A stretch of 64,000 bases of DNA from an uncultured virus (IMG/VR IMGVR_UViG_3300020056_000009) (lineage: Duplodnaviria > Heunggongvirae > Uroviricota > Caudoviricetes). The stretch lies in the IMG/VR virus record IMGVR_UViG_3300020056_000009; one strand, given 5' to 3'. Position numbers and translations under genes: made by a program. Position 1 is the stretch's first letter. Every line of letters begins with the position of its first letter. Shown piece after piece: positions 45,420 to 64,000 of this stretch. The notes under the pieces are model-generated. The model saw nothing but the letters and a program-made list of their open reading frames with translations. It was not told the DNA's origin and did no database searches.

Positions 45420-45862
45420 TTCCTTTGGGATCCTCTAAACCATTACCACTAACGGAATCGTTAGTCTTTGATATTGTAGAATATTTGTTAGACAACGACG
45501 GTTATGGCTTTAGCACTCAAATCTCGGAAACTATGGTGGCTAACAAACCTCGAAGATATACCAGCCGTGAAGTTATTGGTGTTCTTCGCAACCGACCTAT
45601 GTTTAAACACGCTCAATCTAAAGATCGTCGAGGAGGCATTCGTTGGCGATTAGACCTTCTTTCTTTAGTCAAATATTTTGAAAATAAAAATTATGTTGAG
45701 CGAGCCGAAGATAGATCTATCTATGACCGAGTTCGAGAATTAAAATGGAAACAATTAATTCGCACCGTGGCGGCTATGGAATCTCTCCTTCCCGAAATTG
45801 AAAACCCTCGTCCCGAAACTATTGACGAATGTTATGAGATTTTGGCAAATCTATGGTCGTGA
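45416..45862 (+). CDS. putative winged-helix protein
   Basis: STQISE..YTSREVIGVLRNRPMF..RWRL. Confidence 0.65.
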   Translation: MIPLGSSKPLPLTESLVFDIVEYLLDNDGYGFSTQISETMVANKPRRYTSREVIGVLRNRPMFKHAQSKDRRGGIRWRLDLLSLVKYFENKNYVERAEDRSIYDRVRELKWKQLIRTVAAMESLLPEIENPRPETIDECYEILANLWS

Positions 45863-45866
45863 TTGG

Positions 45867-46646: not shown

Positions 46647-46677
46647 ATATAAATAGTTGAAGCGATTAAAAAAGGGT

Positions 46678-47466: not shown

Positions 47467-47477
47467 GGTGATCCGTA

Positions 47478-47969
47478 ATGGATATGGAAAAAATGGCATC
47501 AATGTTGGACTCGTATAGAAAGTTGTTAGAAAAAGAGCGTGATGTAGTTATTAGAGAACAATTTGGACAATTTATGGACCAAATCGGTATTTCTGATCCT
47601 ACGGTTATTGATAATTATTACGAATCTTTTCAATCTATGCTTTCTGAAATCGATCATGATGAAGTATCTCTTCATGAAAAACTAAAAGGCTGTATCGAAT
47701 CTGATTTCTTTCATCAAGTTTTAACTGCTAAAACCAGCAACCGAGAACGAGAACTTCGTAAAATCACTTCACTTCTATCGGAGTTTATCCAAAAATCTGC
47801 AGATAATTCTACTTCTGACGAACAATTCTTGCAATCAATTTTAGCCGAAACTCTTCGCACCGCTGCCGATGCATTAGAAACTAACCGAGATTCAGAACAA
47901 TCGGTTAATGAGGCTTGGGTTGATGCTTTACGATTAGGATATGATATCTTTATTGGCCGAAAGTTATAA
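47478..47969 (+). CDS. hypothetical helical protein
   Basis: GAGGTGA SD. Confidence 0.8.
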   Translation: MDMEKMASMLDSYRKLLEKERDVVIREQFGQFMDQIGISDPTVIDNYYESFQSMLSEIDHDEVSLHEKLKGCIESDFFHQVLTAKTSNRERELRKITSLLSEFIQKSADNSTSDEQFLQSILAETLRTAADALETNRDSEQSVNEAWVDALRLGYDIFIGRKL

Positions 47970-47994
47970 ATATGATTGTGACTAAGGGATAATT

Positions 47995-49050
47995 ATGTCT
48001 GATTTCGACAATCTTATTCGTTCCGATGATTTCGATGAGGTCGAAAGACTTTTAGCCAAGGAACGAGCCGAAAAGAAAACTTCTAAAACCGAAAAGAAAA
48101 AGTCCCTCATGGAAATGGTTGCCGGTTCTAACGATGCTGCTGCTTTGGCTCGTCGTCTTAATGTAGATCCCGATATGTCGGAAAAGGTTTTAGTGCCTCT
48201 CTTAAATTTCCTTGATAAATATGGTGTTGGTGGGGCAGTAGCCGAATCATCTACGGCTCAAGCCGCCACAGGACTCTTTGAATTTTTGGGAGATATTACG
48301 CCTGTAATCAAACAAAGTATGGATTATTTTGCAGGACGACAAAATGAACTTAGCCAACAAGACCTTGATTTCCTAAATCAAATTAAGGATGCCCAAACCG
48401 GAGATATGGATGGTTTATTTATTGGAGAAACTATGGAAGAAACTCCTGCCGAACCTACACCACCTCCGGCACCCAAAGAACAACCGGGACAAATCCCCTT
48501 AGATGTAGACCCCTTCCGAGATGGTGTCGATTGGACTAAGGTAGTGGGAGAACAACCAAAACAAACCGTTATTCCTGAAGCCGAGCCTAATGAAGCCTAT
48601 ATTCAAAATTTGGAAAGATTGGCGGCTGCTTCGGGAATGAGTATGGACGATGTTAAGCGTTCTGATCGACAAGCCAAGACTAATAACTTTGGACGAGTAG
48701 AAAAAGAAATTGATTATTCTGATGCTTTCAATATTGATTTAGGATTAGAAAAGATTAATGCCGCTATGAATCAAGAAAAGAACAAATTGCAATCCTCTTC
48801 TAAAATCCAATTTGATGAGTCCGTTCCTGTTCCCGATTCGGCTACGGCTTTTGACCCTCTCGAAACTCCTAATTACACCACCCCATCATTTACCGGAACT
48901 TTACAATCCGTAGACCAATTAGCAGAAAATGCTGGAGTAGACCTTGACGCTCCGTGGGTTGAAGAAGATTATGACCCTGCTGATGATGATATTGGCTATG
49001 ATTTACCCACCATAGAACCTGATGAGGAGGTTTTAGGGGATGACGACTGA
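47995..49050 (+). CDS. hypothetical acidic protein
   Basis: TATAAATA 30 nt upstream; 351 aa. Confidence 0.85.
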   Translation: MSDFDNLIRSDDFDEVERLLAKERAEKKTSKTEKKKSLMEMVAGSNDAAALARRLNVDPDMSEKVLVPLLNFLDKYGVGGAVAESSTAQAATGLFEFLGDITPVIKQSMDYFAGRQNELSQQDLDFLNQIKDAQTGDMDGLFIGETMEETPAEPTPPPAPKEQPGQIPLDVDPFRDGVDWTKVVGEQPKQTVIPEAEPNEAYIQNLERLAAASGMSMDDVKRSDRQAKTNNFGRVEKEIDYSDAFNIDLGLEKINAAMNQEKNKLQSSSKIQFDESVPVPDSATAFDPLETPNYTTPSFTGTLQSVDQLAENAGVDLDAPWVEEDYDPADDDIGYDLPTIEPDEEVLGDDD

Positions 49051-49456
49051 TATTAATCCGGTTTGGAGTCGTTTTTGTGCTATCCAATTAGAAACTTGGT
49101 TGGAATGGCTTCGTAATATCCATTTGCGATCTTATTTTGATTTGGGTGACCGTTTTATTATGCTTAATCCTTATTATTATCCCTCCGCAGAAGACCAAGA
49201 AGCCTTGCCTATTTTTAATCGTTTAATGATTAACGAAGATTTTATTGGCTCATTATCTGATAAAGGAATCTCGGTTTGGGCTAATTCTGGTTTCCAAGAT
49301 TTTGTCGAGGCTTTGCGACCCTATGGCAATCGTTATCCCGAAATTGCCCAAATTATTACTTATTTTGAAACTCACTTGCAATGGTTCCGACGAGTGTATC
49401 AATTCCTTCGTGCAGAAATGATTATGCAATTACGAGAAGAAGGTCGTTCAATTTGA
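49040..49456 (+). CDS. hypothetical protein
   Basis: overlaps the upstream stop; GAGGAGG SD. Confidence 0.75.
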   Translation: MTTDINPVWSRFCAIQLETWLEWLRNIHLRSYFDLGDRFIMLNPYYYPSAEDQEALPIFNRLMINEDFIGSLSDKGISVWANSGFQDFVEALRPYGNRYPEIAQIITYFETHLQWFRRVYQFLRAEMIMQLREEGRSI

Positions 49457-49494
49457 TGCGAAGTTTTATATAGTTGGCGTAATCAATATAGAAT

Positions 49495-51639
49495 ATGCCT
49501 ACGCTGACGATTGACCAATGTATGACCATCATGGGTTATCTCAATATGGAGGCGTTTTCCAAGAAAACTCTTACTGCTATTGATGATGATGTTGTTGCCT
49601 TTTTAAACAATAATGGATATACTATTCCTGTTTGGGGTTCAGGTCGTGGAGCCAATAACCCGGTTATCGGTGGAGGATCTCAATATTCTGCCATGCTTTC
49701 TGATAAAAAGTTTTGGAATGATGCCAATATTCAAGCCTATTTAGGATTTACGGGACAAGGCGAGGCCGACGATTATACTCGAAATGTTTCTGCCCCACCT
49801 GCCACTAATACCGGAACTTCTTCCGGTGCAAAATTGAATTCTGCTGGAGATAAACTTCCTTCTCGAAATCTTGGACCTGAATATTTTGACCACAATGGCA
49901 TGATGGCAAAAAACATTTTGTCTATCGCTTCCACAGGTATGCCTGATACTACATGGATTGCCTCCGCTAAAAAGGTAGCCGCTGGTGCTAACTATCTTTC
50001 AGAATTTCCGGCCCAATTAGGTGACACCTATGTTCTTGGAAATGCTTTGTTACATCCACAATTAGCGTCTACAACGCCTACAACGCCTACGGCGACGCCA
50101 ACTCCTGCCCCTACGACACCTATGGTGTCAGATGATGAAGAAACGACTACTGAACCTGCGGTGTCAGAAGAAACCGTAGAAGAAGTTGTTACTCCACCTG
50201 CTGCTAACAATAACTTTGGAACCCAACCTGATAAAGAACTTGTAGTTAGCATTTCTAATTCAGGACGGGCCCTCAATGATGCTACTTTCGCTTCTCGTGA
50301 AACCAACAACAATGGATTTTATCCTTATCCCGGAACTTTGATTGTTCCTCTTCTTGCTGACACGCAAAATGCTCTCTTACAGCCCCCGGCAACTGCTAAA
50401 GCCGCCCCTGTTTTAGATCTTTTTGCTGACAATGTAGATACATCTTCTGTCGCTCCGGCATCAACTCCCCGAGCACAATTAGTTTTTAATGGCGATATTG
50501 TTCTTAACACCCCCCATGGCAGTTATAAATTAACTTCTTACGATGAACTCCAAGTTCGTTGGGTTCGTGGAAAAGAAGAAGTCTCCGGATTACTTGCGAA
50601 AAAGGGAGGCACAGAAATTTTCCGAATTGATTCTTTGTCGATTCAACCTTTTACATTCTCTGATGTTTTCAATTATATTGATGGCATTTCTACTCCAGGA
50701 CCTTGGGTAGCCCCCGATGTTCTTGCTAACGCTTCCGAAGTATCACTTCCATTTATTTATGCAGGACCTCAACGAGATTCCGATTATGGAATTACTACCG
50801 TTAGTAGTAGCAAAGATGATTACAACGAAGCCCTTAATGAACTTCGTGATAATGGCGTAATCTTTGGATACTATGGCGTTACTACTCAACCTATTCAAGC
50901 CAGCCTTTCGGTTTATGAAGGTGGAATCGCAGATAGTGATGGCACTTTGCGTGATGAAAATTATTGGTTATCTCGTGTGGCTGGAGAAACCTCTGACGAT
51001 CTCGATGTTTCTACTTCCTACTTGGCAGTTAATCTTTTGATGTCGGGCGATACGGGACAAAACTCCGATCTCTTTGTTGGTTCCGGAGAAATGCGTCAAG
51101 AAACTTTAATTTTCCCAGGCGATGAGCAAGATTTGGATTTGTTGCTAACACCCTTTATTGATGATAAAACTGTTATTGGAGAATTAGAAATTGATTCCGA
51201 AGGTCTTCGACAACTAATGCTCAAAGATATTATGACTTCCACCCCACAAACTGAAGTAGATGATGATGGTAATCCTACGGGAGAAACCACCGTTACGGAT
51301 GCTACTTTAGTCTTTGAAAACCTAACGACCTCCGAAGAAGTCAAGATTTCTATTCCCAATCCTGATGACGAATTCGCTGCAAAAGACCTTTTGGGTAATT
51401 TAATTCGAGGCACCGTCGAATCTATTGAACTCCGTTCTGGTGATGCTGCTGCTGCTCACGAAAAGCAAAAAATCCTCCGACGCCAAGAGCGTATGGGTTC
51501 TAATTGGAATATTCGTAACAGTAGCAAGACTGATCAAAATGCTACCAGCACCGTTGCCTTTGAAAAGGGCCGAAAATACTATATAGTAGGGCGACACGAT
51601 GGTAAACCAATCCTATTGGAATTGGAATTGGAGTTCTGA
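49495..51639 (+). CDS. 714-aa hypothetical protein with Pro/Thr linker
   Basis: long ORF; first gene of the MoxR block. Confidence 0.85.
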   Translation: MPTLTIDQCMTIMGYLNMEAFSKKTLTAIDDDVVAFLNNNGYTIPVWGSGRGANNPVIGGGSQYSAMLSDKKFWNDANIQAYLGFTGQGEADDYTRNVSAPPATNTGTSSGAKLNSAGDKLPSRNLGPEYFDHNGMMAKNILSIASTGMPDTTWIASAKKVAAGANYLSEFPAQLGDTYVLGNALLHPQLASTTPTTPTATPTPAPTTPMVSDDEETTTEPAVSEETVEEVVTPPAANNNFGTQPDKELVVSISNSGRALNDATFASRETNNNGFYPYPGTLIVPLLADTQNALLQPPATAKAAPVLDLFADNVDTSSVAPASTPRAQLVFNGDIVLNTPHGSYKLTSYDELQVRWVRGKEEVSGLLAKKGGTEIFRIDSLSIQPFTFSDVFNYIDGISTPGPWVAPDVLANASEVSLPFIYAGPQRDSDYGITTVSSSKDDYNEALNELRDNGVIFGYYGVTTQPIQASLSVYEGGIADSDGTLRDENYWLSRVAGETSDDLDVSTSYLAVNLLMSGDTGQNSDLFVGSGEMRQETLIFPGDEQDLDLLLTPFIDDKTVIGELEIDSEGLRQLMLKDIMTSTPQTEVDDDGNPTGETTVTDATLVFENLTTSEEVKISIPNPDDEFAAKDLLGNLIRGTVESIELRSGDAAAAHEKQKILRRQERMGSNWNIRNSSKTDQNATSTVAFEKGRKYYIVGRHDGKPILLELELEF

Positions 51640-51648
51640 GGTGATATT

Positions 51649-54600
51649 ATGGATGATGACGAAATCAATGACGAAATCGACGAGTTAGGAGACCTTTTTA
51701 GCGATCTTCCTGAAGATACCGAAGAAATTAACACCGATGTTGATGAGGTTCCTACGGAAGCCCCACAAGATGACTCTTCTGAAGAAGAAACTATGGATGA
51801 TATCGTAGAAACTACCATTCCCGAAGAAGAAGGAACTAACATTCCTTTCCATCCTGATGTAATGCAAGAATTGTCTAATTTCGTTGGCACCGAAGAACTT
51901 GATGCTATTGCCAAGTTTATTATGCCCGAATATGACGAAGAAGGCGAAATTATTTCCCCACTTGTTACTTCACCACAAGCCCCGGATTCTATTAAGTTTG
52001 TTCGTTCCATTTTGGGTGGTAATACTGCCGACCTTCTCAACAAGGTAGCCGACCTTCGAGGAACCACTCTCAATGAGATGGTCAAAGTAGTAGAACTACC
52101 TGAAGATCTTAACCGTATCGATATTCTTAACGATGGTCTTGGCGGTGCCCGATTTATTCAAATGTTCGATGCTCAAGGTAATGATATTACCAGCGTTCTA
52201 AATTTGGATTTGGATGATATTGGACAACTTAAAGTAGACAAGGTTTTCCGTGGCTCCACTATGACCGCTTTAGATAATGGTGAAGGTCAATGGTCTCCCG
52301 ACAGCATGGGCAAGGCCGTATCTCCACCTTTCCAAGAGTATTACAATTTGATTTCACAACGAGAAACTCGTAAGCAACGAGTTGATACTCTCCAATGGCT
52401 CCGTAAACTTATTAACCGTCTTAACTCCGTTTTCGGTTTCGACGATTACCGACAATTAGAAGCATTTATGGCCGCATGGCTAATGAAGAACGCTACTTGC
52501 CGATTGTCAGGTATTCCAGGAACAGGAAAGACTACGGTTATTAACTGTGCTGCTACCCTTATGGGTAACTCCTATGGATTCCATATCAACAAAACCTATT
52601 TGGCTACCGATTCTACGATGGAAAAATATCCTCTCGATTATACCGGTAACCACACCCTCCCTGATTTCACGATGATTTATGCCGATAACTCTATGGTTTC
52701 CAATGCTCACATGGTTGATGTTGCTCCTTCAGGACAACAATACAATGTTTTGTATAACGACCAACGCAACGAATCCATTTATCGTAATTGGAATGGATGG
52801 CGTTTCCGAGATTGGCAACCTACGGCTCCCGGAACGGTGCGACTATCAGGATCTTATTCCTTTGATTTCAATTTCCTTCGACGCTACGAACCAGCCTATG
52901 AAAAATTAGGTCTTCCTGCTATCGATGGTGACCGATTGTCCAAAGCCCCCATGACCCCTGAAAAGTTCCACAAGGTTCTAAACAACTGTTGGGAAGTTGA
53001 AGTTGCTCAAGATTTCGATCTTAAAGCACACCTCAAGGGACAATCAATGTCCCATTGGGACCCCAACTCTGAAGGCTTCAAAGAGGCTAAAAAGGCTGGT
53101 AAAACTCGTATGATGGTTAAGCCAATTCAATATTTCGGTAGAGATGGTTCAGTATCTTTCTTTAATAACAATACTGGACCCACTTACGGACCCTACCAAA
53201 TGCGATTGCGATTCCCTGAAATTGATTCCGCTGTTATGGAAGATGGCTTTAAGCATATTACTGATTTGGCTACCTATATCGGTGCTACGGGACAACAAGG
53301 ATTGTTCTCCGATACGGGTCGTAACGAAGGTTATTGGCTCCGACATCTAATGTGCCATTGGTTTGTTGATGACCGCACTAACTCCGATCGCGGTTTGTTC
53401 GATATCAGCGTAGAAATGCTCCGAGAAATCGGTGTGGCAAAGATTGACTTCGACAAGCGACCTGATGAAGTTCTTTATGGTCTTGAAATCCGTGCTGTTG
53501 AAGCCGTAAACCAAGCCGGAGAAACAGTCAGCACCTATGAGTTCGAACCTGTGCCTCGTGAAATTGTAACGCAACCGGTTAAGTTCTTCAACGAAGCCAA
53601 CCGTTCTCAATCTGGTGTTGAAGACGCCGTTCTTGGTCTAATTGCTGAAAAGTTAGTCGAATATCGTGGTAAAACTTTCAAGTCTCCCGATTTCGTAGCA
53701 TGGATGGACACCAACCCTCACCAAAAGGGTAACGACTTGGCATTTACTGACCGTATCGATATGGAACTACTCTTTAAGTCAGTTTCTCTCGGTGGCCGAT
53801 ATGACCAATTGTCCAACAAATTCGGTGGGGCCGGTGGAAAAGAACCTCAACTAATCTTGGTAGATTATCTTACTAAGGATGGTAATGACCCCAATTCTTT
53901 CCGTCCTATGCGTATCGTTAATCTGTTCAGTCTATGGAAGACTGTCGGCAAAGATATGAAGTTTACATCCCCCGGTTCAACCTTTGATGGTCTGCGTGAT
54001 ATTTCAGTTATCTCGGTTCTGTTTTCCCAAATTTTCGCCAAGCGACCCTCTTCGATCACTTTTGGTGATAACGCCTACAACTACACTTTCGCTGAAGATG
54101 ATAATCTCAATCTTTACGAATCACCTCTTTTGGATTATTCTACCACTACCAACACCAACACTTCTGATAAGGGAACCACTTCTCCTGTGCTAACTGATGA
54201 TGCCAACCTAATTTTCGGTAGCATGGATGCTGGACAAGGACAACTACCAATTGTCTTTACTCGTGTTCTTGGTTTCCGTTTCACCAACTCTTTGGTAAAA
54301 CTATCTCAAGCCTTCGCATTCTTGCGAGGCAAAGATTTCGTTTCTCGCCAAGAAATTTTGGATGCTGTGCCTTATGTAATTGCACACCGTATGGGTCGTG
54401 CTAAGGCGGGTGCTAAAGACATGGAAGGAAACAACAAGGGTCTTGATGGAAACCGTTTGGGATATGTCAATGAACAAGAATTCATTCGAGAATTCATCGT
54501 TAAGGGCTATCTTGAAGGTAAAATCGGTGATGTTTCACCCTTTAACGAAGACAATAACAACCTCTTGGACAATGTAGATTATTTCTACAATCATTGTCGC

Positions 54601-55947
54601 ACCATGATGGATTCTGTGCCAAATGTTTGGGAATATGAATCTTTGGTAATGGAACCCATTTACCGCAATATCTTGGAAGGCGATGTTGATGATATCACTC
54701 CAATTCACTGGCACATTGCTACCATGGTTGTCGAAGAAGAACGCAAGGGTCGTGGACGAACCGTTATGCGAGATTATTCCAAGTCATTTGCAGGTCCTCG
54801 TGGCACCCCACTAATTACCAAGGCCCCTACCAATTATCATGAAATGTATAGTAATTACGAATTCATGATTTTGAATCCCTCTCCTAACGGAGAACCATCA
54901 GCATGGGACTACTACCGTCTGCGTGGTTTGGTATCTCGTGAACCCAACTTGTTTACTCATGACCGTGAACGATTGCTAACCATGATTTCTGGTGAAATGC
55001 GATCTACTGTTGGTGCTGAAGGTCTTCAACTTCGCAACGATATTGGTAGTGTATCAGTTATTCCCTTCCCACAAGCCGTATCATCTGGTCGAATGCGATA
55101 CTATCCTGAAGGAGATGAATCTCCGTGGCCCCGTCCCGACCAAATTTATTGGCCTGTTTATGATGACGCTCAAGGAGCATGGGGAACTCTTATTGGTTTT
55201 GGTGCTGCCGAAACCTATGATAACACTCAAGTTGCCACACCATTGTCAGTTCAAAATGATTTCTCCTTAGCGGCGGCTAACCAATCCCTCCGAGTTTCAG
55301 GACGATATCTCCAATCAGGCGGTGTCACTTCCCTCTCTAAATACGATGTGGCCTCTACCCTCAAGAAGTTTTACGATAACTTTACGCCTTATGTCGGTGC
55401 AGGTTGGGACATGGAAGATACCTTCCCTAACGCTGATGTCAAAAACTCCAATGCTGGAAAGGCTATTACCTTTGAATCATGGATTAAAAAGGCTCAAGAG
55501 TTCTTGAAGCGTAAAATCCGAGATCCTGTGGGCGATGCTTACAATGATATCTATGCTTGTTTTGAATTGGACCACGCTCCAATTTCTGTTCCACAGGCTG
55601 CCCTACGAGGAATCACGGGAGATGACAAACTTCGCTTGTGGCTCCGACTCAGTTATGTTGGTTCCAACATTACCGAAACGGGTGCTGATTTGGTAGATAT
55701 TCTCTTTACCGTCGGTATTTCTTCGGCTTTGGCAACTACCAGCAAGAACAATCTTGGTTTGTTGGCTCAAGGTGCTGACTTTACCATTGTTCCTGTCACG
55801 GAAGATAAGCAATACACGCAACGCTATTATAGCAACGGTGCATCACAACCAGGATACAAAACCAACACGGCTTTGGTAGACTCAGGTAACATGATGTCTT
55901 CCGATCGCAACTATTATAACAACCTCTTTGCAGAATCTTTGCAATGA
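51649..55947 (+). CDS. giant MoxR-like AAA+ ATPase with large insertions
   Basis: Walker A SGIPGTGKT, Walker B-like FFNEANR, sensor-1 MDTNP, AFTDRID, lid AFAFLRGKDFV..VIAHR. Confidence 0.85.
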   Translation: MDDDEINDEIDELGDLFSDLPEDTEEINTDVDEVPTEAPQDDSSEEETMDDIVETTIPEEEGTNIPFHPDVMQELSNFVGTEELDAIAKFIMPEYDEEGEIISPLVTSPQAPDSIKFVRSILGGNTADLLNKVADLRGTTLNEMVKVVELPEDLNRIDILNDGLGGARFIQMFDAQGNDITSVLNLDLDDIGQLKVDKVFRGSTMTALDNGEGQWSPDSMGKAVSPPFQEYYNLISQRETRKQRVDTLQWLRKLINRLNSVFGFDDYRQLEAFMAAWLMKNATCRLSGIPGTGKTTVINCAATLMGNSYGFHINKTYLATDSTMEKYPLDYTGNHTLPDFTMIYADNSMVSNAHMVDVAPSGQQYNVLYNDQRNESIYRNWNGWRFRDWQPTAPGTVRLSGSYSFDFNFLRRYEPAYEKLGLPAIDGDRLSKAPMTPEKFHKVLNNCWEVEVAQDFDLKAHLKGQSMSHWDPNSEGFKEAKKAGKTRMMVKPIQYFGRDGSVSFFNNNTGPTYGPYQMRLRFPEIDSAVMEDGFKHITDLATYIGATGQQGLFSDTGRNEGYWLRHLMCHWFVDDRTNSDRGLFDISVEMLREIGVAKIDFDKRPDEVLYGLEIRAVEAVNQAGETVSTYEFEPVPREIVTQPVKFFNEANRSQSGVEDAVLGLIAEKLVEYRGKTFKSPDFVAWMDTNPHQKGNDLAFTDRIDMELLFKSVSLGGRYDQLSNKFGGAGGKEPQLILVDYLTKDGNDPNSFRPMRIVNLFSLWKTVGKDMKFTSPGSTFDGLRDISVISVLFSQIFAKRPSSITFGDNAYNYTFAEDDNLNLYESPLLDYSTTTNTNTSDKGTTSPVLTDDANLIFGSMDAGQGQLPIVFTRVLGFRFTNSLVKLSQAFAFLRGKDFVSRQEILDAVPYVIAHRMGRAKAGAKDMEGNNKGLDGNRLGYVNEQEFIREFIVKGYLEGKIGDVSPFNEDNNNLLDNVDYFYNHCRTMMDSVPNVWEYESLVMEPIYRNILEGDVDDITPIHWHIATMVVEEERKGRGRTVMRDYSKSFAGPRGTPLITKAPTNYHEMYSNYEFMILNPSPNGEPSAWDYYRLRGLVSREPNLFTHDRERLLTMISGEMRSTVGAEGLQLRNDIGSVSVIPFPQAVSSGRMRYYPEGDESPWPRPDQIYWPVYDDAQGAWGTLIGFGAAETYDNTQVATPLSVQNDFSLAAANQSLRVSGRYLQSGGVTSLSKYDVASTLKKFYDNFTPYVGAGWDMEDTFPNADVKNSNAGKAITFESWIKKAQEFLKRKIRDPVGDAYNDIYACFELDHAPISVPQAALRGITGDDKLRLWLRLSYVGSNITETGADLVDILFTVGISSALATTSKNNLGLLAQGADFTIVPVTEDKQYTQRYYSNGASQPGYKTNTALVDSGNMMSSDRNYYNNLFAESLQ

Positions 55948-55986
55948 CCCAAAAGTTAATATAGTTGATGACCTTAAGATAGTCAT

Positions 55987-57237
55987 ATGGCTAAGTTGCC
56001 CTCGACTTCGGTTCGTGCGTCAGCCCACTTGCCAGCCAATTTTATTGATACCTATAAAGTATTCAAGAAAATGACGGGTATTCCTTCCGATACTCAAATG
56101 GTTTTGTCTACCTCGCTTCACAATGCTTATACCAATTCTAAGCAAGTTTGTTTTGGACCGGAATGGGTAGACTCATCAATTCCTGCCAATTTTCATGGTT
56201 TCGATAATCTTGATGAAGTTATTGCCATGAATCAATTCGTTATTGCCCACGAAGTTGGACATCTTTCGGTTCAACCCGGGTGGGAAGTATCTTGGGGAAA
56301 AGACATTGGTGAATGGCCTATCGACCACGCTCGCCAACCCCGATGGAGCAATGTTTTCTCGGATGTCTTGGTAAACACCCACATTATGCAGGCTCGTGAT
56401 TGGTCACGCACCGGTTCAGATCCCGAAACTCAAAAGATTCTTGATTTGATGCCGTGGTCACAACGATGGCACTTAAAATCTCGCATTTGCGAAAATACTC
56501 TTAAACACGATATGCTTCGAGCCGCTGGCACTCTCCCTGATAACCGATATCAAGCCCCCGGTTTAGTTCGTGGTGCTTACGATCCTTCTGACCCTGATGA
56601 CCAATTTACTCCTGATGAAGCCTTGACTCCTCTTTATCAAGTTAAAACCGGACACGGAAGAGGATTCCAAGTTTACCCACCCCTTTCTCATTGTGTTTCC
56701 AAACCAGACAAATGGCGACAAGTAGTTGTTAAAACTGATTATAATTTAGTCCAATGTAGCCAATGTGAAGAGATTTTCCCCGATAAACTCCAAATTCGTG
56801 GTCGTTGTCCTCGATGTAACAAAAGTTGTTCCGCTTACAAAACTATTTCTGCTGGAACTTATACCGTTACCAAAACTAAAGATTTAAATCAAGAAGTTAA
56901 TCCTACCAATCCTACTTTTCCCCATTATTATGAAATTAATAATTCTTGGATTCCCTTTTATATTTGTCAAGAACTTTGTCCTGATTGTGGAGAAGCCGCT
57001 TCTTGCGATCTTACCGAAGGTTTTTCTACGGTAATCAACGACCCTGCAGCATCGGCTTGTTCCGAACAATCTACCCTTTGGCGAGTATTAGTTATGCAAG
57101 AATATGCTGGATTCCGTGCTCTCCAAGATGGTTTTAGAGGAAAAACAGGCATAGAAGCCGGATTAGCCTTTTTAGAGGCCATCGGTATTATTGCGGATTT
57201 TGCAGAAATGAAGTGTCAAGACTTCCCGGCGAGGTGA
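55987..57237 (+). CDS. HExxH metallopeptidase-like protein (DUF2201-N-like) with Zn ribbons
   Basis: IAHEVGH..NVFSDVLVN; CSQC, CPRC, CPDC. Confidence 0.7.
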   Translation: MAKLPSTSVRASAHLPANFIDTYKVFKKMTGIPSDTQMVLSTSLHNAYTNSKQVCFGPEWVDSSIPANFHGFDNLDEVIAMNQFVIAHEVGHLSVQPGWEVSWGKDIGEWPIDHARQPRWSNVFSDVLVNTHIMQARDWSRTGSDPETQKILDLMPWSQRWHLKSRICENTLKHDMLRAAGTLPDNRYQAPGLVRGAYDPSDPDDQFTPDEALTPLYQVKTGHGRGFQVYPPLSHCVSKPDKWRQVVVKTDYNLVQCSQCEEIFPDKLQIRGRCPRCNKSCSAYKTISAGTYTVTKTKDLNQEVNPTNPTFPHYYEINNSWIPFYICQELCPDCGEAASCDLTEGFSTVINDPAASACSEQSTLWRVLVMQEYAGFRALQDGFRGKTGIEAGLAFLEAIGIIADFAEMKCQDFPAR

Positions 57238-57241
57238 TATT

Positions 57242-59869
57242 ATGTATGATAACAATCCTTTTCCATCTATGGCTGGTAGCCAAATCCTAAAAGATATGTT
57301 TAAGGCCATTTATCGACCAGACCCTTCTGACGACAATAAGTTAGCCGAAGGAGTTCGAGAAAATAGAAATTATTTCAATTCTCATAAAGCGGCTATGGTA
57401 AATCTTATGAAGCGTTTTTTGGGAGGTTATGAACCTATCGAAGAAAATAACTCTATGGATTCCGGAATCTATGTTTGTGATCCTAATTTTGGTGGTTGCG
57501 GTCGAGCCGATTTCATGTATAATTGGGAATTTGTAGACATGGGAGTTTATGATGCTCGTAATTGGTTAGGTTCTTTAGAATTAAAACAAGATAAAATTTG
57601 GGCTCAACGAGGATTCCCCGTCATTACCCGAGTTCGCTGCAATGATTACAATCATTGTCAAGACTGTAATGCTACTTTTGCAACTCGAACCAGAGGCCGT
57701 AGTTGTATTTATTGTGGTAGTAATAACACCCAAGGTGGTGGTTGTGGAAAAGAACATTTTGCAGTCCATTTAGTTCGTGAAACTACGGCTGATAATATTG
57801 AGGCCCAAACCCTTCCGGCTATTAAACCCACTAACTATGTTTTGGGAACTATGCGTGGTAAACCAGCACAAATTTCTTCCAGTAAACCGTTTGCTTTTAG
57901 ATTGACTTATGCCGGAGTTCCTAACGACCAAAGAATTACTTCTTTTCAACAGGCTTGTGATTATATTCCTAATTTAGAAGTAGGTTATGAAGCCTCTTCA
58001 GATGGTTATACCTTTTATCGACCTAATCGATTGGTTTCTTCCGAGGGTGAGGAAACTTTCTTTGGAACGCCCTCACTTAATCCTACTGATAGCAGACAAA
58101 TTATGAATGGTCAAACTGATTCTAAAGGCAATAGTTGGTTTTTAGACCCTGAAGTTGCCGATCTTGAATTCATTGATATGAATCGATATAGTAGTTCCTC
58201 TGAAAAAATGAGATCTAAATTATTGGATTTTAACTCTGAACCTTCTCGCTATCCACTCAGTAAACTTCGTTTTGCCTTTACTATGGAACCGCAATTAGTT
58301 TGCACTAATCACGCTTCCTATTATGGTTCCGGAAACCGAATGTTGTGGGGACTTGCGGGGCAAGTCACTTGTCCTAAATGTGGTCGAACCAATCAACCGT
58401 ATGAACGAAGAGATCGATCTACCGGAGCGATTACCCGAGAATGTCGGTCTTGTAATTTTGATATTACTCTTCTACCTCCTTTTTCATCACCCCGTCCTCT
58501 TAGTTTGTGTCCCGAATGCGGTAATAACACCGACCCTATTAACATTCGAGAAATTAAATCGGGAGTTAAGGGTAAATTGATTTATCCTCGTAAAAAATTA
58601 TTTATTAAAGCCGACCCCAAGATTTTCCCACTCCAAGTTCAAGGAAAAGCCAACACTCTTCCCGGAAGCAGAACACTTTTGATGGTTACTGACGATGATG
58701 AAGATGGATACAGTTACGAATTACATTTGGCCGATAAATACACTACCCTGATGGTTCCTAATTCTTTAGAACAGGCTCAAGGATTATTAGGAATGGGTGA
58801 TGGTGCTTCTGGCTCGGCTTCAGATTCTTGCCCCAAAGATAATATGTGCTCTCTTACCGGAGAACCCTTATCAGCATCTATGGGACCCTCAGGACCTATT
58901 GCACCTGCCGGAGCACCGGTTCCCGACCCCGAAGGATGTTGTATTCTTCCTGATGGAAATCTAATCAATACTACGGAATTAGGCTGTTTGGCCCTTAATG
59001 GAAATTATCAAGGCGATGGCACAGATGTGGCAGATTATATGACTACTCGTTCTGCTTCTCTAACTTATCCCGAATCAGGAGTTTCCTTCCCAGCGTTTTC
59101 ATGGATTGTTTGTGAAGGTCACGCCCAATCAGCCTATCGAAATAATCGTCGAAAGTGGGTTGATATGTCAGTTCCTAATAGAGTTTATCGAGATCCTAAT
59201 ACCGGAGAATCAGGAACTTTGCGAACATTCCCTCGCTTTAGTGAAGGGCCCAATTATGACCCTCGAACCAAAATTATGGTAGGTTCTCCCCCTGCACCTG
59301 AAATGGCTCGTCGCAGTAAATATCAATGGATGAATCCTCGGACTCACATGATGATGGATATTTTTAAGCATTGTTCTATTAACTTGCGAGGCAGATCTCC
59401 TGACTCGGCTTTTGCCAACCCCACTCACCGACCTAAGGCTCGGGGTTATGTTGAACTTGATGCTAATACCATTGCTCCTCTCTACACTTGTCGCACTTGT
59501 TTGAGTATGATGACTTATGGAAGAGATTTAGCCTTTAAGAATGACTCTTCAGGAGCCGGTAATCCCTATGGTAAACCTTGGACTACTATTGGAGGTGCTG
59601 CTAATCTAAGAGAGGCATGGAATGATGGACGCCCTGAAAAGTATTATCCCGGAGTCGAAGTCATGTGGGAACGACGAAAAGCAGGACAATATACAGGATG
59701 GATTGATGATAACACCCCCAGTTTCTTGCCTCGTCGTATCGATGTTTATTCGGAAGCCATTTTGCATATGGAGATTAAAACTACGCAACAAGAAAACGGA
59801 TGGTGGGCGTGGATTCATGACCAAACCATTTATCAGATGTCAAAAACCCCCGGTTCATATATTATTTAG
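57242..59869 (+). CDS. 875-aa multi-Zn-ribbon protein
   Basis: CQDC, CIYC, CPKC, CRSC, CPEC, CRTC; GAGGTGATATTATG SD. Confidence 0.85.
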   Translation: MYDNNPFPSMAGSQILKDMFKAIYRPDPSDDNKLAEGVRENRNYFNSHKAAMVNLMKRFLGGYEPIEENNSMDSGIYVCDPNFGGCGRADFMYNWEFVDMGVYDARNWLGSLELKQDKIWAQRGFPVITRVRCNDYNHCQDCNATFATRTRGRSCIYCGSNNTQGGGCGKEHFAVHLVRETTADNIEAQTLPAIKPTNYVLGTMRGKPAQISSSKPFAFRLTYAGVPNDQRITSFQQACDYIPNLEVGYEASSDGYTFYRPNRLVSSEGEETFFGTPSLNPTDSRQIMNGQTDSKGNSWFLDPEVADLEFIDMNRYSSSSEKMRSKLLDFNSEPSRYPLSKLRFAFTMEPQLVCTNHASYYGSGNRMLWGLAGQVTCPKCGRTNQPYERRDRSTGAITRECRSCNFDITLLPPFSSPRPLSLCPECGNNTDPINIREIKSGVKGKLIYPRKKLFIKADPKIFPLQVQGKANTLPGSRTLLMVTDDDEDGYSYELHLADKYTTLMVPNSLEQAQGLLGMGDGASGSASDSCPKDNMCSLTGEPLSASMGPSGPIAPAGAPVPDPEGCCILPDGNLINTTELGCLALNGNYQGDGTDVADYMTTRSASLTYPESGVSFPAFSWIVCEGHAQSAYRNNRRKWVDMSVPNRVYRDPNTGESGTLRTFPRFSEGPNYDPRTKIMVGSPPAPEMARRSKYQWMNPRTHMMMDIFKHCSINLRGRSPDSAFANPTHRPKARGYVELDANTIAPLYTCRTCLSMMTYGRDLAFKNDSSGAGNPYGKPWTTIGGAANLREAWNDGRPEKYYPGVEVMWERRKAGQYTGWIDDNTPSFLPRRIDVYSEAILHMEIKTTQQENGWWAWIHDQTIYQMSKTPGSYII

Positions 59870-59880
59870 GAAGTGAAAAA

Positions 59881-60918
59881 ATGAGTGGAATTAGTAGTAG
59901 TGCCTCGGGCGGACCTTGTAATTATCAAGGTAATAGTGTTGCCATTGAAGATGAAGATGATGATAACGATTTCGTTAATCCTTTGGAATACTTCTTTGAA
60001 GAAATTGCCCCACCCTATGTAGATTCTCCTAAAGCCCAACGCTATCCTGAAGTTCCTATTCGCACCACAGATTGGGATATCAGTCAAGGAACCAAACCAG
60101 CCATTAAATCTACTTTAGTGCCATTCCCTTTTCCAGGAACAGGTCCTGCTATGCTGGTAGACCAACCGATTCCTAAAGGCACCGAAGGAAAAAACACCGC
60201 TATTTTGATTTCTATTGATCGTTCAGGATCTATGGGTGGCAATGCCTTCCCCGTTCAAGGTCGAAGTCTAAGCCGTATTGAAGTGGCTCGTGGAATTGTT
60301 TGTGCTCTCATTAGATTGGCTCAAAATCAAGGTGACCATTTCGCAGTATTATCATGGGGCTCCGGTGTTTATACCGAATGGCCCCAATCACCACCCGGCA
60401 ATTTGGATTCGTGGGCGATGCCTTTGTCTACCAACTATGATGAAGCCTTAGATTATTTTAAACAATATGAATCAGGAGGCAACTGTCCTTATCCACCTAT
60501 TCCTTGCACCGATGGAACTACTTTCCAATTTGCTACCCAAGCCTTAGTAGATAAAATTCGTGGGACGGGAATGGAATCCGTTATTTCTTTTGTAGTCACC
60601 GATGCTTTTGCAGATTATGGTAGCAACGGGGCCCGAAATATGTTTTCAGGATTCTTTAGTCCTGATCAAGCCACCGGAATTCCGATGGACACTATGCTTC
60701 GTCGTGGGGATTCTGCAGTTTATTATTTCGGTATTGACAACTTAGGCAACGCTCCTACTTGCCGAAGAACTGCCGAACAATTGAATCAAATGATTGACGA
60801 CCATTATGGAAAACCACAACGACCCAAATCGGCTCACTTCTTCCCCTTAGACCCCGCTAATCCTAATGCGGCTCGTGAAATGGCAGAACTTATGTTAGAA
60901 TTGGCAGAACACGATTAA
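59881..60918 (+). CDS. von Willebrand factor A domain protein
   Basis: MIDAS IDRSGSM, DGTTF, FVVTDA. Confidence 0.88.
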   Translation: MSGISSSASGGPCNYQGNSVAIEDEDDDNDFVNPLEYFFEEIAPPYVDSPKAQRYPEVPIRTTDWDISQGTKPAIKSTLVPFPFPGTGPAMLVDQPIPKGTEGKNTAILISIDRSGSMGGNAFPVQGRSLSRIEVARGIVCALIRLAQNQGDHFAVLSWGSGVYTEWPQSPPGNLDSWAMPLSTNYDEALDYFKQYESGGNCPYPPIPCTDGTTFQFATQALVDKIRGTGMESVISFVVTDAFADYGSNGARNMFSGFFSPDQATGIPMDTMLRRGDSAVYYFGIDNLGNAPTCRRTAEQLNQMIDDHYGKPQRPKSAHFFPLDPANPNAAREMAELMLELAEHD

Positions 60919-60960
60919 GCAACATAAAAGTTCATATAGTAGAACCGCCTAAGAATAATC

Positions 60961-62124
60961 ATGTCTGAAGTAATTGATTTACCAGACCGTGTGGTTTTGG
61001 GTAAAGATATTCACTTCCCTGCTTATGGCAGCGATTCTATTATTTCTCAAGTGCTTTTCGTTACCGGAAAGCGTGGCTCTGGGAAATCTTGGACTGCTGC
61101 CGTGATTATGGAAGAGTATCATCGATTAGGACTCCAATTCGTTTGTTTCGATGCTCTTGACGCTCACGGTCATATTGGCGAACAATTACCCAATGTAGTT
61201 CCCCTTCGTCCCGGACCAGCGGAAACCATTAATATGAAAGAATTGGTAGAAACTCTCCGAAACACTCCCAAATCAGTTATTATTTCTATGGCGGGAATGC
61301 CCTTAGCCAAACAACAAGAAATGATTACCGAATATTGTGAGGCATTGTTAGAAGGCACTTTAGGAAAAGGAATTATGACTGTCTTTGAAGAATGTCAAGA
61401 CTTTATTCCTCAAATGGGCAAACCTAACTCGGCTGATGCTATTGTCCGACTTTGTAAATTGGGTCGGGCTTTAGGCTATGGAGCCACTTTGATTTCTCAG
61501 CGACCTGCGGGTGTTGGCAAAGAAGCACTTTCTCAGGCTTCTATTTACCTCGTTCACAATGTTATTAACGCTCGGGATCTCAAAGCCCTTGATGACCAAT
61601 TGTCTTTCGGAACTGATAAAAAAACCATTAAGCGAATGTTGGATGGTATCGCTAAAGCCAAAAAAGGAGAAGTTATTGCCTATGCTCCCGAGTTTTATCG
61701 AGATCGAGGTTATGTCGTCGTTGGTAAAATCCGAGGAGATCGAAAAACCGAACACAAAGGTCACAACATTGAAGTCAAAGATGCTCGGGAACGATTTTCT
61801 GAAGAAATTGATGACCATCGATCGTTATCTTCTTTAGACCGTCCTTTAGAAATCAACAAACCCCCGGTATCTAAACCCACTTTTTCTACTAATGTTGGTG
61901 GTGGCGTAGTCCCCCCATCAACTAAGGAAATTTTGATTCCTACCGAAAAGAAATCCGAGTGGTCACCAGAACCCGAAGAACCTGATTTTGAATATGATTT
62001 AGAATCCGAATCGGATTCGGAAGAATCTGATGTTAATCCTGTTGTCGTAGCCACTTTTGTCGGCGGAGTTATTCTCACCGGAACTTTAGGTTTCTTGGTT
62101 TATCGTGGCTTTAATTCAGCATGA
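60961..62124 (+). CDS. HerA/FtsK-superfamily ATPase with C-terminal membrane anchor
   Basis: GKRGSGKS, VFEECQ, LGRALG, ISQRP; ends VVVATFVGGVILTGTLGFLVYR. Confidence 0.88.
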   Translation: MSEVIDLPDRVVLGKDIHFPAYGSDSIISQVLFVTGKRGSGKSWTAAVIMEEYHRLGLQFVCFDALDAHGHIGEQLPNVVPLRPGPAETINMKELVETLRNTPKSVIISMAGMPLAKQQEMITEYCEALLEGTLGKGIMTVFEECQDFIPQMGKPNSADAIVRLCKLGRALGYGATLISQRPAGVGKEALSQASIYLVHNVINARDLKALDDQLSFGTDKKTIKRMLDGIAKAKKGEVIAYAPEFYRDRGYVVVGKIRGDRKTEHKGHNIEVKDARERFSEEIDDHRSLSSLDRPLEINKPPVSKPTFSTNVGGGVVPPSTKEILIPTEKKSEWSPEPEEPDFEYDLESESDSEESDVNPVVVATFVGGVILTGTLGFLVYRGFNSA

Positions 62125-62167
62125 TTTTAGGGAAAATCATAAATAGGTGGCAACCAAAAGGTTGCCC

Positions 62168-62959
62168 ATGATGTTAGGCGAAGCCTATTACAAAAGATTT
62201 CATTTACAGATTCCTGAAGAAGATCTGCGACTCTCCGACCATGATTTTAGTCTTAAATATGAGGGCTTAAGCCCTCAAGACCTCTTTTCAGGACTAACTC
62301 TTTATTTTTATGCTCGTAAAACCACTCGTTCTGAAGGACGCAACCGATCTTTATTTGTTAATTCTCAATCAGGATTACAAGAAGCCTGTTTTGATGAAGA
62401 TATGGTAGGCCCAATTGCTTGGACTATTACCGGAGATACTAAACGATGGATTCCAATTACTCCTGCAAACAATCCTGTAGAACCTCTCAAACCACAGGGG
62501 TCTTCAAACCAAATTGATTTTGCGGCAGAATCAACCGAAGGCCAAATTTCTTGGACTATTCCTATTCGGTGGCAAACTTGTGCGGAATTTAGGGTGCCTC
62601 GTTTAAACATCAAAGAATGCAATCCTCAATTTGTCGTCGGGGCCCCCGGTTTTACCAATCGTAATTACAAGTTTAAAGGTAAATCTAAACCCAAATTAGG
62701 TGCGGGATTTATTGTTAAGGCTGAACAAGTAACTTATGATGAACGAGAATATGATAATCACCATATCAAAAATTTATCAGACCTACAAGGCAAACCCGCT
62801 TGGTTTTATGTTCCCGTCAATTATGTTAATCCCAAAGCACTTTGGGAAGGCAACAAAACTTTAGGAATTACTATTAATTATCCCGTTACAGGCTTTTTAG
62901 AGTCTTTAGGATTAGTAGAAAGATTACCACCCAAATTCCATATGAATGCTAAACTATAA
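62168..62959 (+). CDS. hypothetical protein
   Basis: promoter-hairpin GGCAACC-aaaa-GGTTGCC; internal FAAE. Confidence 0.8.
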   Translation: MMLGEAYYKRFHLQIPEEDLRLSDHDFSLKYEGLSPQDLFSGLTLYFYARKTTRSEGRNRSLFVNSQSGLQEACFDEDMVGPIAWTITGDTKRWIPITPANNPVEPLKPQGSSNQIDFAAESTEGQISWTIPIRWQTCAEFRVPRLNIKECNPQFVVGAPGFTNRNYKFKGKSKPKLGAGFIVKAEQVTYDEREYDNHHIKNLSDLQGKPAWFYVPVNYVNPKALWEGNKTLGITINYPVTGFLESLGLVERLPPKFHMNAKL

Positions 62960-62985
62960 ATAGTCGGAACGATACTATTCTAACT

Positions 62986-63339
62986 ATGCTTCTAAACGAT
63001 GTGCCTGTAATTCAAGACCAAAACACCGGAGTATCTTGCTTCCCTTGGGAATCAGATATGGGTGCAGTCCACTCTTTTGACCTCAACAACTCTTCCGCTA
63101 TGACGGATTCTACTTTGGGCATGGTCGCTAAGGAAGATACCATGACGGAAGCCAATGTTACCAAAGAAGATGAAGAATCTGTCCAACAAGATGATGGTCA
63201 AGGCGAATCCGAATCAGATCTTGAAACCAAGGCTGCAGAAGGCACGACTTCCGGAATCGATTTCAAGAAGTTGGGTGTTATGGCTTTGGTAGGCGTTGGT
63301 GCTTACTCTGTTGTCACCATGATTCTTAACCGATATTGA
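62986..63339 (+). CDS. acidic tail-anchored protein
   Basis: KAAE; ends LGVMALVGVGAYSVVTMILNRY. Confidence 0.8.
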   Translation: MLLNDVPVIQDQNTGVSCFPWESDMGAVHSFDLNNSSAMTDSTLGMVAKEDTMTEANVTKEDEESVQQDDGQGESESDLETKAAEGTTSGIDFKKLGVMALVGVGAYSVVTMILNRY

Positions 63340-63376
63340 GTAAAAGTATAAATAGTAGAAGCAAGGAGTAATCATT

Positions 63377-64000
63377 ATGGCACGAGTAATCGGAAAATCC
63401 ACAGTATTGCCTGATGGACCTTACCAACCTAACCTACCTCAATTACCACAAGTCTCTTTGACTCGTGATACTTTGTCGGCTCACAACGCTATGGGTCAAT
63501 CACTCAGCGTAGCCGCCCCTCGACCCGCAGCACCCGTTATTAACACCCCTGCTTTTAATGTTCCTGAAGGTGAAGGACTTTCTCTTGAAGAAATCCTACT
63601 TGGTGGTGGATTCGGACAAGGTGTTGTTCCTAACGCTCCTCGCCCCGCACCAACCAAGATTGGTATGCCTAAACTAAATCTCAGTTCACTTCAACAATCA
63701 CGACAATCCGATTTCGATGTTAATGCTTACGCCCTTATGGGACAACGCATTACACCTGAAGGACAATACCTACGACCCAGCCATATGCAAGAAATCTATG
63801 GTGATATGGACCACACTCCCAATGTGGCTCACTTAGACCGTGTTCGTCCTGAAACTATGATGCCTACTTTTGATGTGCATCAACCCACAGAATACTTCGG
63901 TAACAACCCTGCTTTCGAAGTAGACCGTGCTGCAATTCGACCCACCAACCCCCGTCTACTTAGTAGCGGTGCCCCACAAGTGAATGTGCCTCGCACCGAG
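63377..64000 (+). CDS. Pro-rich hypothetical protein, truncated by the window end
   Basis: TATAAATAG 30 nt upstream; MARVIGKSTVLP... open to 64000. Confidence 0.75.
   Translation, partial: MARVIGKSTVLPDGPYQPNLPQLPQVSLTRDTLSAHNAMGQSLSVAAPRPAAPVINTPAFNVPEGEGLSLEEILLGGGFGQGVVPNAPRPAPTKIGMPKLNLSSLQQSRQSDFDVNAYALMGQRITPEGQYLRPSHMQEIYGDMDHTPNVAHLDRVRPETMMPTFDVHQPTEYFGNNPAFEVDRAAIRPTNPRLLSSGAPQVNVPRTE

Follow-up and report, generated by a model that had tools for sequence, protein, structure and literature searches.

We identified a block of six co-oriented genes, k to p, in a 64,000-nucleotide stretch of DNA from an uncultured virus (IMG/VR record IMGVR_UViG_3300020056_000009; the whole stretch is referred to below as the window). 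The block encodes a MoxR-like ATPase (l), an HExxH protein (m), a Cys-rich protein (n) and a protein (o) with a vWA domain, the type A domain of von Willebrand factor, with gene k upstream and a second ATPase gene (p) downstream. The gene content, the sequence motifs, the synteny, the joint absence of l, m, n and o from one relative and the archaeal context of the relatives were all observed, and the block is a variant of the MoxR/vWA kind in a lineage of which we found no description in the literature. We give about an even chance to the reading that its products form a machine in which a MoxR/vWA pair remodels proteins alongside a peptidase of its own, for the maturation of the virion or of an appendage. 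The open reading frames (ORFs) of the block are tightly packed, with intergenic gaps from k to p of 9, 39, 4, 11 and 42 nucleotides. An earlier reading of this DNA (the original prediction) had placed six co-oriented large genes here, and the ORF listing reproduced its coordinates exactly:

49495..51639, plus strand: gene k, 714 amino acids, with a Thr/Pro-rich linker, fast-evolving
51649..55947, plus strand: gene l, MoxR-like AAA+ ATPase (ATPases associated with diverse cellular activities) of 1432 amino acids, with an AAA_lid_2 match
55987..57237, plus strand: gene m, HExxH protein of 416 amino acids
57242..59869, plus strand: gene n, Cys-rich protein of 875 amino acids with several zinc-ribbon-like CxxC pairs
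[quoted passage not shown]
60961..62124, plus strand: gene p, HerA/FtsK-class P-loop ATPase of 387 amino acids with a C-terminal hydrophobic anchor

A search seeded with l returned 233 proteins at E≤0.001 among 7999 scored candidates; among the 120 of these 233 matches that were listed, lengths ranged from 792 to 1556 amino acids and contigs reached 190,857 bases. The gene was confirmed in at least 214 stretches of metagenome contigs, in four IMG/VR loci and in four contigs of metagenome-assembled genomes (MAGs), labelled Rickettsiales (two), Flavobacteriales and Acidiferrobacteraceae. We take the lineage to be a large, widespread marine and estuarine one. Searches of the phage collection with the 10.5-kb DNA, with l and with p (the latter by tblastn, E≤0.001) returned no match. 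Eighty of the metagenome stretches were kept and combined with the IMG/VR and MAG loci into a set of 88 related loci, all ascertained through l, in which ORFs were called and iterated hidden Markov model (HMM) searches were run with 19 window proteins. Several of these loci have the same or nearly the same sequence (L001, L002 and L051, for example, have identical ORF maps), so that the independent genomes are fewer than 88.

The gene order c-d-e-g-h-i-j-k-l-m-n-o-p-q-r-s, on a single strand, was found in every sufficiently long locus, and none of the 88 loci was non-collinear or strand-switched. Where both flanks exist, k was present in 70/71 loci, l in 72/72, m in 66/66, n in 59/59, o in 53/53 and p in 49/49; the only locus that misses k (L088) has an ORF of 454 amino acids in its position. 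The same holds upstream of the block (d 56/56, e 63/63, g 64/64, h 66/66, i 66/66 and j 70/70), and downstream q was present in 39/41 and r in 34/41 flanked loci. A gene for an ArsA-type ATPase, two to three genes upstream of c, is kept at the same place in 48 other loci. The identity of l between relatives and the window falls to 33%, yet the order of the block is rigid. The genes are thus co-conserved in relatives, in agreement with the original prediction. Its block limits (49495..62124) were too narrow, as the conserved unit reaches further on both sides: because the fixed order extends beyond k and p, the six genes form the central part of a collinear module that spans about 20 kb, from position 42178 to position 64000 of the window. 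The remaining parts of this module in the window are:

42178..43173, plus strand: ArsA/Get3-like ATPase (Pfam ArsA_ATPase, E 2.6e-54)
44455..49456, plus strand: upstream collinear genes c, d, e, g, h, i and j, encoding small conserved proteins, a protein with a hydrophobic segment in mid-chain and an acidic protein of low complexity
62147..64000, plus strand: downstream collinear genes q (270 amino acids), r (117 amino acids, tail-anchor-like) and s (runs off the window)

A scan of IMG/VR seeded with p provided a test that is free of ascertainment through l. It yielded five close loci, four of which are the known l-bearing records. The fifth (L105) lies in a 123-kb record (G008) that IMG/VR classes as a provirus, and its p is 61% identical to that of the window. 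The gene order in G008 is c-e-g-i-p-s, and h, j, k, l, m, n, o, q and r are missing within 6 kb. When the whole record was searched with the profiles of l, m, n and o, none was found, and each of these genes was recovered in the positive control, a 160-kb relative (G003). G008 carries the gene for DNA polymerase D (PolD). The cassette is certainly absent from its usual place in this record; as G008 is estimated to be 61% complete, it might lie in the unseen part. Since G008 keeps p and does without l, m, n and o, these four genes behave as one separable cassette: they occur jointly or are missing jointly, and p forms part of an older core. No paralogy was detected among the 15 module families other than l in an all-against-all hhalign comparison (best probability 3.8%). 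A search with p gave 373 homologues. Six distant relatives of p (L106-L111, 24-31% identity) are without any further module gene in the surrounding 6 kb. Of the split and greatly expanded chaperone-protease machine that had been proposed originally, the MoxR-like core, the vWA domain, the HExxH protein and the anchored HerA-class ATPase are present and co-conserved. The joint absence of l to o is what one would expect of a single functional unit, and the proposal thus withstands its own refutation test as far as co-conservation is concerned. It has to be redrawn for the HerA-like gene p, which stands outside the unit of gain and loss, and the roles suggested for it (morphogenesis, polyprotein processing or host conflict) are putative. 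As G008 does without l to o, we favour an accessory role in maturation or in an appendage over a role in basic capsid assembly, and G008, in which the four genes are absent and the rest is kept, offers a ready comparison for what the cassette contributes.

For the whole l protein the only Pfam match was AAA_lid_2 (E 2e-7, 31.1 bits against a cut-off of 22.7, residues 881-917). Searched as a sub-region alone, this part scored 33.2 bits, and other sub-regions matched only generic P-loop families. The Walker A motif GIPGTGKTT at residues 288-296 is invariant in an alignment of 12 homologues, and its pattern occurs in 80/80 full-length members. Walker A is separated from Walker B by ~350 residues, the first ~270 of which are poorly conserved, after which a near-invariant block, KFFNEANRS...FVAWMDTNPHQKGNDLAFTDRID, and then the lid follow. 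Walker B corresponds to KFFNEANR with Asn648-Glu649, in which the Glu is kept and Asn takes the position of Asp in 80/80 members. In an hhalign comparison with two real MoxR proteins from MAGs (P 2.7e-4, probability 42%), the segments FFNEANRS...WMDTNPH...DRID of l were paired with DEINRA...ATQNP...DRF, placing N648-E649 opposite the D-E of MoxR. The AAA_3 family matched the stretch of l from Walker B to sensor 1 in 3/3 records, with 13.1-14.8 bits against a cut-off of 27. We read l as a probable divergent MoxR-clade protein, whose very large insertion would fall in the region of the helix-2 insert. The label of MoxR-like ATPase is supported by the AAA_lid_2 match above cut-off and by the hhalign and AAA_3 alignments of Walker B to sensor 1. 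The vWA gene o lies two genes downstream, and l had this partner in all 53 loci in which both flanks of o exist.

The assignment of o as a vWA protein could also be upheld. In the window copy VWA_2 was matched below its cut-off (E 8.6e-4, 20.3 bits against 27), and at E≤1 the same family was matched by 15/21 homologues (best E 1.3e-6) and VWA_CoxE by 3/21. The MIDAS motif keeps D113 and S115 in each of 21 sequences, and DxSxS is present in 52/62 members of 300 amino acids or more; searching the o profile against PDB sequences gave nothing meaningful. Tandem copies of o were seen in L021, L027, L028, L059, L080 and L084, and in L044 four short ORFs resemble o and may stem from a copy that is broken or was mis-assembled.

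Gene m had been described as a DUF2201-N-like peptidase. The peptidase part of this description agrees with the HExxH motif, found in 71/71 members with H88, E89 and H92 invariant, and with weak matches of the predicted structure to zincins. The family part was not borne out by sequence: DUF2201_N (PF13203) was matched by 0/22 homologues of m at E≤1 and in 0/3 whole records at E≤10, a search in which the control genomes were matched. Neither did m match any Pfam family at E≤0.01, its profile gave nothing meaningful against PDB sequences, and among 1.84 billion representatives the profile retrieved only its own family (48 matches at E≤0.001). The AlphaFold2 model of m (pLDDT 83.8, pTM 0.84) predicts an N-terminal zincin-like helical domain with HExxH inside the helix 75-95, a beta-rich region (~230-335) with conserved Cys pairs and a C-terminal helical hairpin. 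With VIA-align the N-terminal domain matched ZMPSTE24 (Z 5.8, 148 residues aligned, root-mean-square deviation 4.6), BepA (5.4), jannalysin and abylysin (5.3) and selecase (5.2), and residues 230-337 matched SH3 domains at Z 4.7-4.9. Six of the top 25 rows obtained with the model in BFVD are phage proteins of 600-780 amino acids named after VWFA domains or CobT, one of them named CobT; the probability of these matches reaches 0.96 over 130 columns, all with E 0.13 or worse. As a lead, m and o may represent a split form of the peptidase-vWA fusions (DUF2201_N/DUF2201), with the difference that the 875-amino-acid gene n separates them here.

The CobT name and the presence of AAA_lid_2 also bear on a different explanation, in which l and o, like CobS/CobT or NorQ/NorD, act as a chelatase-like pair or insert a cofactor, as an auxiliary metabolic function. 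AAA_lid_2 is shared with that group of AAA+ proteins, and VWA_CoxE in 3/21 o homologues points the same way. However, no gene for a CobN/ChlH-like protein or a target enzyme was found nearby, those ATPases have only about a quarter of the size of l, and the cassette lies among lineage-specific genes and is strictly linked to the peptidase and the zinc-ribbon protein. We regard this explanation as highly improbable.

The multiple zinc ribbons originally proposed for n are consistent with its zinc-ribbon-like CxxC pairs; the family has invariant Cys clusters, with a median of 25 Cys and 6 CxxC. Its profile gave nothing better than E 1.2 against PDB, and n had no Pfam or PHROG match. Gene k was wrongly called an ORFan, as it has homologues in 81 other loci; these share 17-53% identity with the window copy, apart from one relative with 90%. 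No match to k was found in Pfam, PHROG, PDB-profile or ESM Atlas searches, and q gave no usable match in the ESM Atlas either.

The rapid evolution of k and the dispensability of the cassette in G008 would fit a host-takeover or counter-defence device, in which the MoxR/vWA pair acts as a switch and the peptidase as an effector that remodels or cleaves host proteins. PMC7159879 describes ternary conflict systems in which further conserved components and peptidase effector domains join a MoxR-vWA core, and the module studied here has a comparable composition. Against this, the systems described in that account are cellular and mostly from multicellular bacteria (PMC7159879), and none of their VMAP, iSTAND, FtsH or beta-propeller families was seen in the Pfam scans of the module. 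None of k, l, m, n and o had a PADLOC match at E≤0.01. Unlike conflict loci, which shuffle, the 88 loci keep a rigid order and content with l down to 33% identity, and the cassette sits within the collinear core instead of a variable island. A role in host conflict is in our view quite unlikely.

Maturation of the particle or an appendage, the role we favour, has its best functional analogy in the Acidianus two-tailed virus (ATV). ATV p618 binds the vWA protein p892 as well as virion and tail proteins and is linked to tail development, as reported in PMC4124505, and l and o are likewise a MoxR-type AAA+ protein with a vWA partner, in what is probably a virus of archaea. The parallel drawn with ATV in the original prediction stands as such an analogy; no specific kinship with p618/p892 could be found. 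The profiles of l and o gave nothing below E 0.2 against the ATV ORFs (hmmsearch), and none of 16 module HMMs gave a match below E 0.0099, the weak match at that value being c against an unannotated ORF. ATV also differs in that p618 has 618 amino acids compared to 1432 for l, in that its annotated record has no adjacent HExxH or zinc-ribbon gene, and in its circular genome of 62.7 kb and its hot-spring origin. The viral role of MoxR/vWA pairs rests almost entirely on this one hot-spring virus. The module described here adds a much enlarged version with its own peptidase and zinc-ribbon protein, in fixed order, in a lineage common in marine metagenomes.

In cells, MoxR ATPases pair with vWA co-chaperones and the MIDAS of the vWA protein binds the client (PMC7159879, PMC9976466); the pair is described as a ring ATPase with the vWA protein as plug or adaptor and the client held by the MIDAS (PMC9976466). 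With NorQ/NorD, CbbQ/CbbO, RavA/ViaA and CoxD/CoxE, l and o share Walker A, a DEINR-like Walker B, the NP of sensor 1, DR(F/I), the lid and a vWA partner with MIDAS, and the same mechanism is likely for l and o. Unlike the cellular MoxR proteins, l has long extensions at both termini and an insertion of ~350 residues that separates Walker A from Walker B, Asn stands in for the Walker B Asp in every full-length member, and AAA_3 stays below cut-off. The viral context and the separate peptidase and zinc-ribbon protein further distinguish l and o from the cellular pairs.

Based on these comparisons we propose a working scheme, in which the oligomeric state, partners, clients, timing and presence in particles are inferred. 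The hypertrophied MoxR-type AAA+ protein l would form a ring, on which the vWA protein o would dock as an adaptor, its MIDAS gripping an acidic residue of the client. ATP-driven movement of l would then remodel the client, and m, as a putative zincin-type peptidase, would cut the client or a pro-piece once this is exposed. The zinc-ribbon protein n may be a scaffold or a client, and among the candidates for a client or surface component the fast-evolving k is the strongest. Gene p would move DNA at a membrane for genome packaging, after insertion with the help of the virus-encoded ArsA/Get3. The genes l to o would thus be an accessory elaboration, separate from basic capsid or packaging functions, and work in the manner of ATV p618/p892.

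Several results weigh against this scheme. AAA_3 did not reach its cut-off in the three records and was absent for the window l at E≤0.01, the l profile gave nothing at E≤1 against PDB sequences and phmmer of l likewise gave nothing meaningful, and the Asn in place of the Walker B Asp in 80/80 members means that normal ATPase chemistry is not assured. For m, the Z values of the zincins are low and tied with those of unrelated helical rows, Foldseek found nothing at E≤0.001 for the model in PDB and BFVD, and no third zinc ligand was identified; the invariant residues N122, S125, D126 and N130 lie on the next long helix after HExxH. The hhalign probabilities for ATV were 3.7% (l against ORF618) and 2.7% (o against ORF892), with only generic motifs aligned. 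The G008 variant indicates that the cassette is dispensable for the core, and motifs in c that resemble those of archaeo-eukaryotic primase-polymerases, together with a SAP domain in one i homologue (see below), hint at DNA transactions. Finally, the whole record of G003 was scanned with Pfam (123 ORFs of 140 amino acids or more) and PHROGs (94 ORFs). Pfam at E≤1e-4 recognised no capsid, portal, terminase or other structural family, and PHROGs at E≤1e-5 no structural family apart from p. As no structural family was recognised, a virion module, and even a particle-forming virus, is not established.

Gene p matched DUF87/HerA in Pfam with 24.5 bits against a cut-off of 23.2, and its profile retrieved from PDB a DUF87 protein (8yho, 1.4e-14) and HerA (4d2i, 2.8e-11). 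Its best PHROG was phrog_2666, 'terminase large subunit' (2.8e-15). Among k to p it is the only gene that matched NCBIfam or PADLOC: HerA (37.5 bits, cut-off 970) and CedD (32 bits, cut-off 600) in the former and, far below cut-offs, defence-type HerA models in the latter. Walker A is found at residues 36-43, followed by an acidic Walker B and a QRP block, and a C-terminal hydrophobic anchor is present in 52/52 members (residues 358-381 in the window copy). The P-loop core is shared with the HerA/FtsK class, which includes cellular HerA, CedD and packaging ATPases of membrane-containing viruses. As Walker A begins at residue 36 of only 387, there is no room for the N-terminal barrel, so that p does not have the full-length architecture of HerA (N-terminal barrel, about 500-600 amino acids) and differs from cellular HerA in size, in the missing barrel and in the membrane anchor. 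A membrane-anchored HerA-class ATPase, as first described, nevertheless fits the DUF87 match and the anchor in all members.

A C-terminal hydrophobic segment was also found in 34/35 members of the r family. In the window, 6/84 called genes, including p and r, encode proteins that end in a single hydrophobic segment like a tail anchor; genes of this type with a single C-terminal hydrophobic segment include:

8521-9405: tail-anchor-like
9441-10208: tail-anchor-like
43519-44016: tail-anchor-like
60961-62124: tail-anchor-like (gene p)
62986-63339: tail-anchor-like

Archaeal ArsA homologues act as Get3. The anchored p, the conserved ArsA/Get3 gene and the six tail-anchor-like proteins suggest a viral or assembly membrane, and suggest that ArsA/Get3 may be a virus-encoded insertion factor for the virus's own tail-anchored proteins. 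The conserved Get3 and the tail-anchored ATPase offer a testable case of a virus with its own membrane-protein insertion factor.

Two of the upstream genes hint at DNA transactions. Gene c (124 amino acids, window 44455-44829) has no Pfam match and carries the family-wide motifs FDWDD...W.R.SSS..G.H...LEC.GR. We take these to resemble motifs I and II of archaeo-eukaryotic primase-polymerases, although c is far smaller than the known ones. Gene i (window 47995-49050) encodes an acidic, low-complexity protein, and its homologue in L035 (5509-6852) ends in a SAP DNA-binding domain (E 7e-11), the only Pfam match of any strength among the upstream collinear genes. With p as a HerA/FtsK/CedD-like ATPase, the zinc ribbons of n and the inverted terminal repeats that IMG/VR assigns to G002 and G003, these genes could suggest that the cassette acts on DNA, joining p and its DNA-binding neighbours in a membrane-bound complex for packaging, replication initiation or end processing of a linear genome with inverted terminal repeats. 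However, G008 has p, c and i without l to o, showing that core DNA functions need no cassette; nuclease, helicase and polymerase domains were not found in k to o, and MoxR/vWA pairs are known as protein remodellers. We consider a direct action of the cassette on DNA unlikely. Between e and g the window has a gene for a polysaccharide pyruvyl transferase (45798-46646), found in this position only in the window and in a 97% identical relative (L005); G003 has its pyruvyl transferase gene elsewhere, adjoining a family 2 glycosyltransferase.

The replication and transcription genes of the relatives point to Archaea. The Pfam scan of G003 identified TBP (5e-46), the PolD large subunit with each of its three domains (1e-104), PCNA and an archaeal Holliday-junction resolvase, as well as ERCC4, an XPD-like helicase, PolX, a primase-like protein, ArsA, three C5 methylases and an AAA ATPase. 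Both PolD and TBP were found again in G001, G002 and G004; they were not found in G006 and G007, whose viral contigs are short, and DNA polymerase B (PolB) was found in 0/3 records. The archaeal gene set of the lineage (a full-length PolD large subunit, DP2, with TBP, PCNA and the resolvase) is represented in relatives at:

L094:6624-10190, minus strand
L089:15740-16381, plus strand

These findings agree with the archaeal mobile-element context that had been assumed for the block. No TBP, PCNA or PolD was found among the scanned ORFs of the window, and its archaeal assignment therefore rests on its relatives. PolD is given as known only from Archaea in PMC11348598. The host of the lineage is therefore probably an archaeon, and the bacterial labels of the MAGs are probably binning errors. 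Four lineage contigs (L085-L088) lie inside MAGs that are GTDB species representatives, one of which has PolD and TBP on other contigs; the lineage contigs in these reference MAGs are probably binning contaminants. A search for PolD homologues returned more than 4700 proteins. Six clusters of these were looked up; their contigs do not exceed ~180 kb, and the bins that hold them bear contradictory labels (Flavobacteriaceae, Woesearchaeota, Thorarchaeota). Judged by this size and these labels, they are probably the same elements. No description of a PolD-encoding virus group or of such a lineage was found in the full-text literature, a search in which subscription journals were not covered.

Two known virus types were considered for the lineage. 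According to PMC5434244, capsid, portal and terminase genes can be recognised in magroviruses, which also have PolB; this identity was dropped as G003 shows no capsid, portal, terminase or PolB. A tailed-phage or double-jelly-roll identity had no supporting family in the Pfam and PHROG scans of G003, which is absence of evidence only.

The lack of a recognised capsid gene in the G003 scans also raises the alternative that these elements are large, linear and extrachromosomal but not viral, with p as the motor and l to o as the assembly chaperone of a membrane apparatus for DNA transfer or secretion. The terminal inverted repeats, the likeness of the membrane-anchored p to CedD and HerA, and ArsA/Get3 with six tail-anchor-like proteins among 84 called genes would suit such an element. 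On the other hand, the relatives are listed as viral records by IMG/VR, the best PHROG of p is named terminase large subunit, and no conjugation family appeared in the Pfam and PHROG scans of G003. The window itself is virus-like, being 94% coding with 72/84 genes on the plus strand in a simple gene call. Pfam searches further identified in it a class II ribonucleotide reductase, an ATP-dependent ligase, a flap nuclease, ERCC4, UvdE, two DNA methylases and the ArsA ATPase, and no tRNA gene was found in its 64,000 nucleotides. By its gene content the window looks like part of a large double-stranded DNA virus, and we hold a non-viral element to be very unlikely.

If the lineage is viral, a broader version of the maturation role can be formulated, which we put forward only tentatively and regard as doubtful. 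The cassette would drive morphogenesis in a major group of large oceanic archaeal viruses (140-190 kb) that replicate with a PolD of their own, carry TBP and are without recognisable capsid, portal or terminase genes. A giant MoxR ring, the vWA adaptor and the zinc peptidase would act once assembly is over to reshape a membrane-containing particle or to build an appendage, in the way of ATV but at a far larger scale, and Get3 would insert the tail-anchored packaging ATPase in the viral membrane. Should the module be particle-building machinery, it would open up structural studies on a sizeable part of the marine archaeal virome in which no capsid genes can be recognised.

Contigs from four RNA libraries covered 30, 30, 29 and 9 of the 30 bins of window 44001-64000, where RNA libraries may contain DNA and contig depth cannot rank genes. 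In three of these libraries a contig over r, s and beyond (62997-64000 on) had a mean depth of 50-105 compared to ~5-32 over k to p; high expression of s or its downstream neighbours is a lead that derives from contig depth alone.

Three other regions of the window stood out. A protein of 575 amino acids (33607-35334) with bacterial thrombospondin type 3 (calcium-binding) repeats is encoded in a region of raised GC content (0.48) and AT skew and may be a surface or adhesion protein. On the minus strand, five consecutive ORFs of 133-178 amino acids without Pfam match (14077-16537) lie in the part of the window with the lowest GC content (0.34) and may form an early or accessory island. An ORF of 667 amino acids (23690-25693) with a C-terminal match to HNH/homing endonucleases (PHROG, E 2.9e-14) is located directly upstream of the class II ribonucleotide reductase gene (25791-27830).

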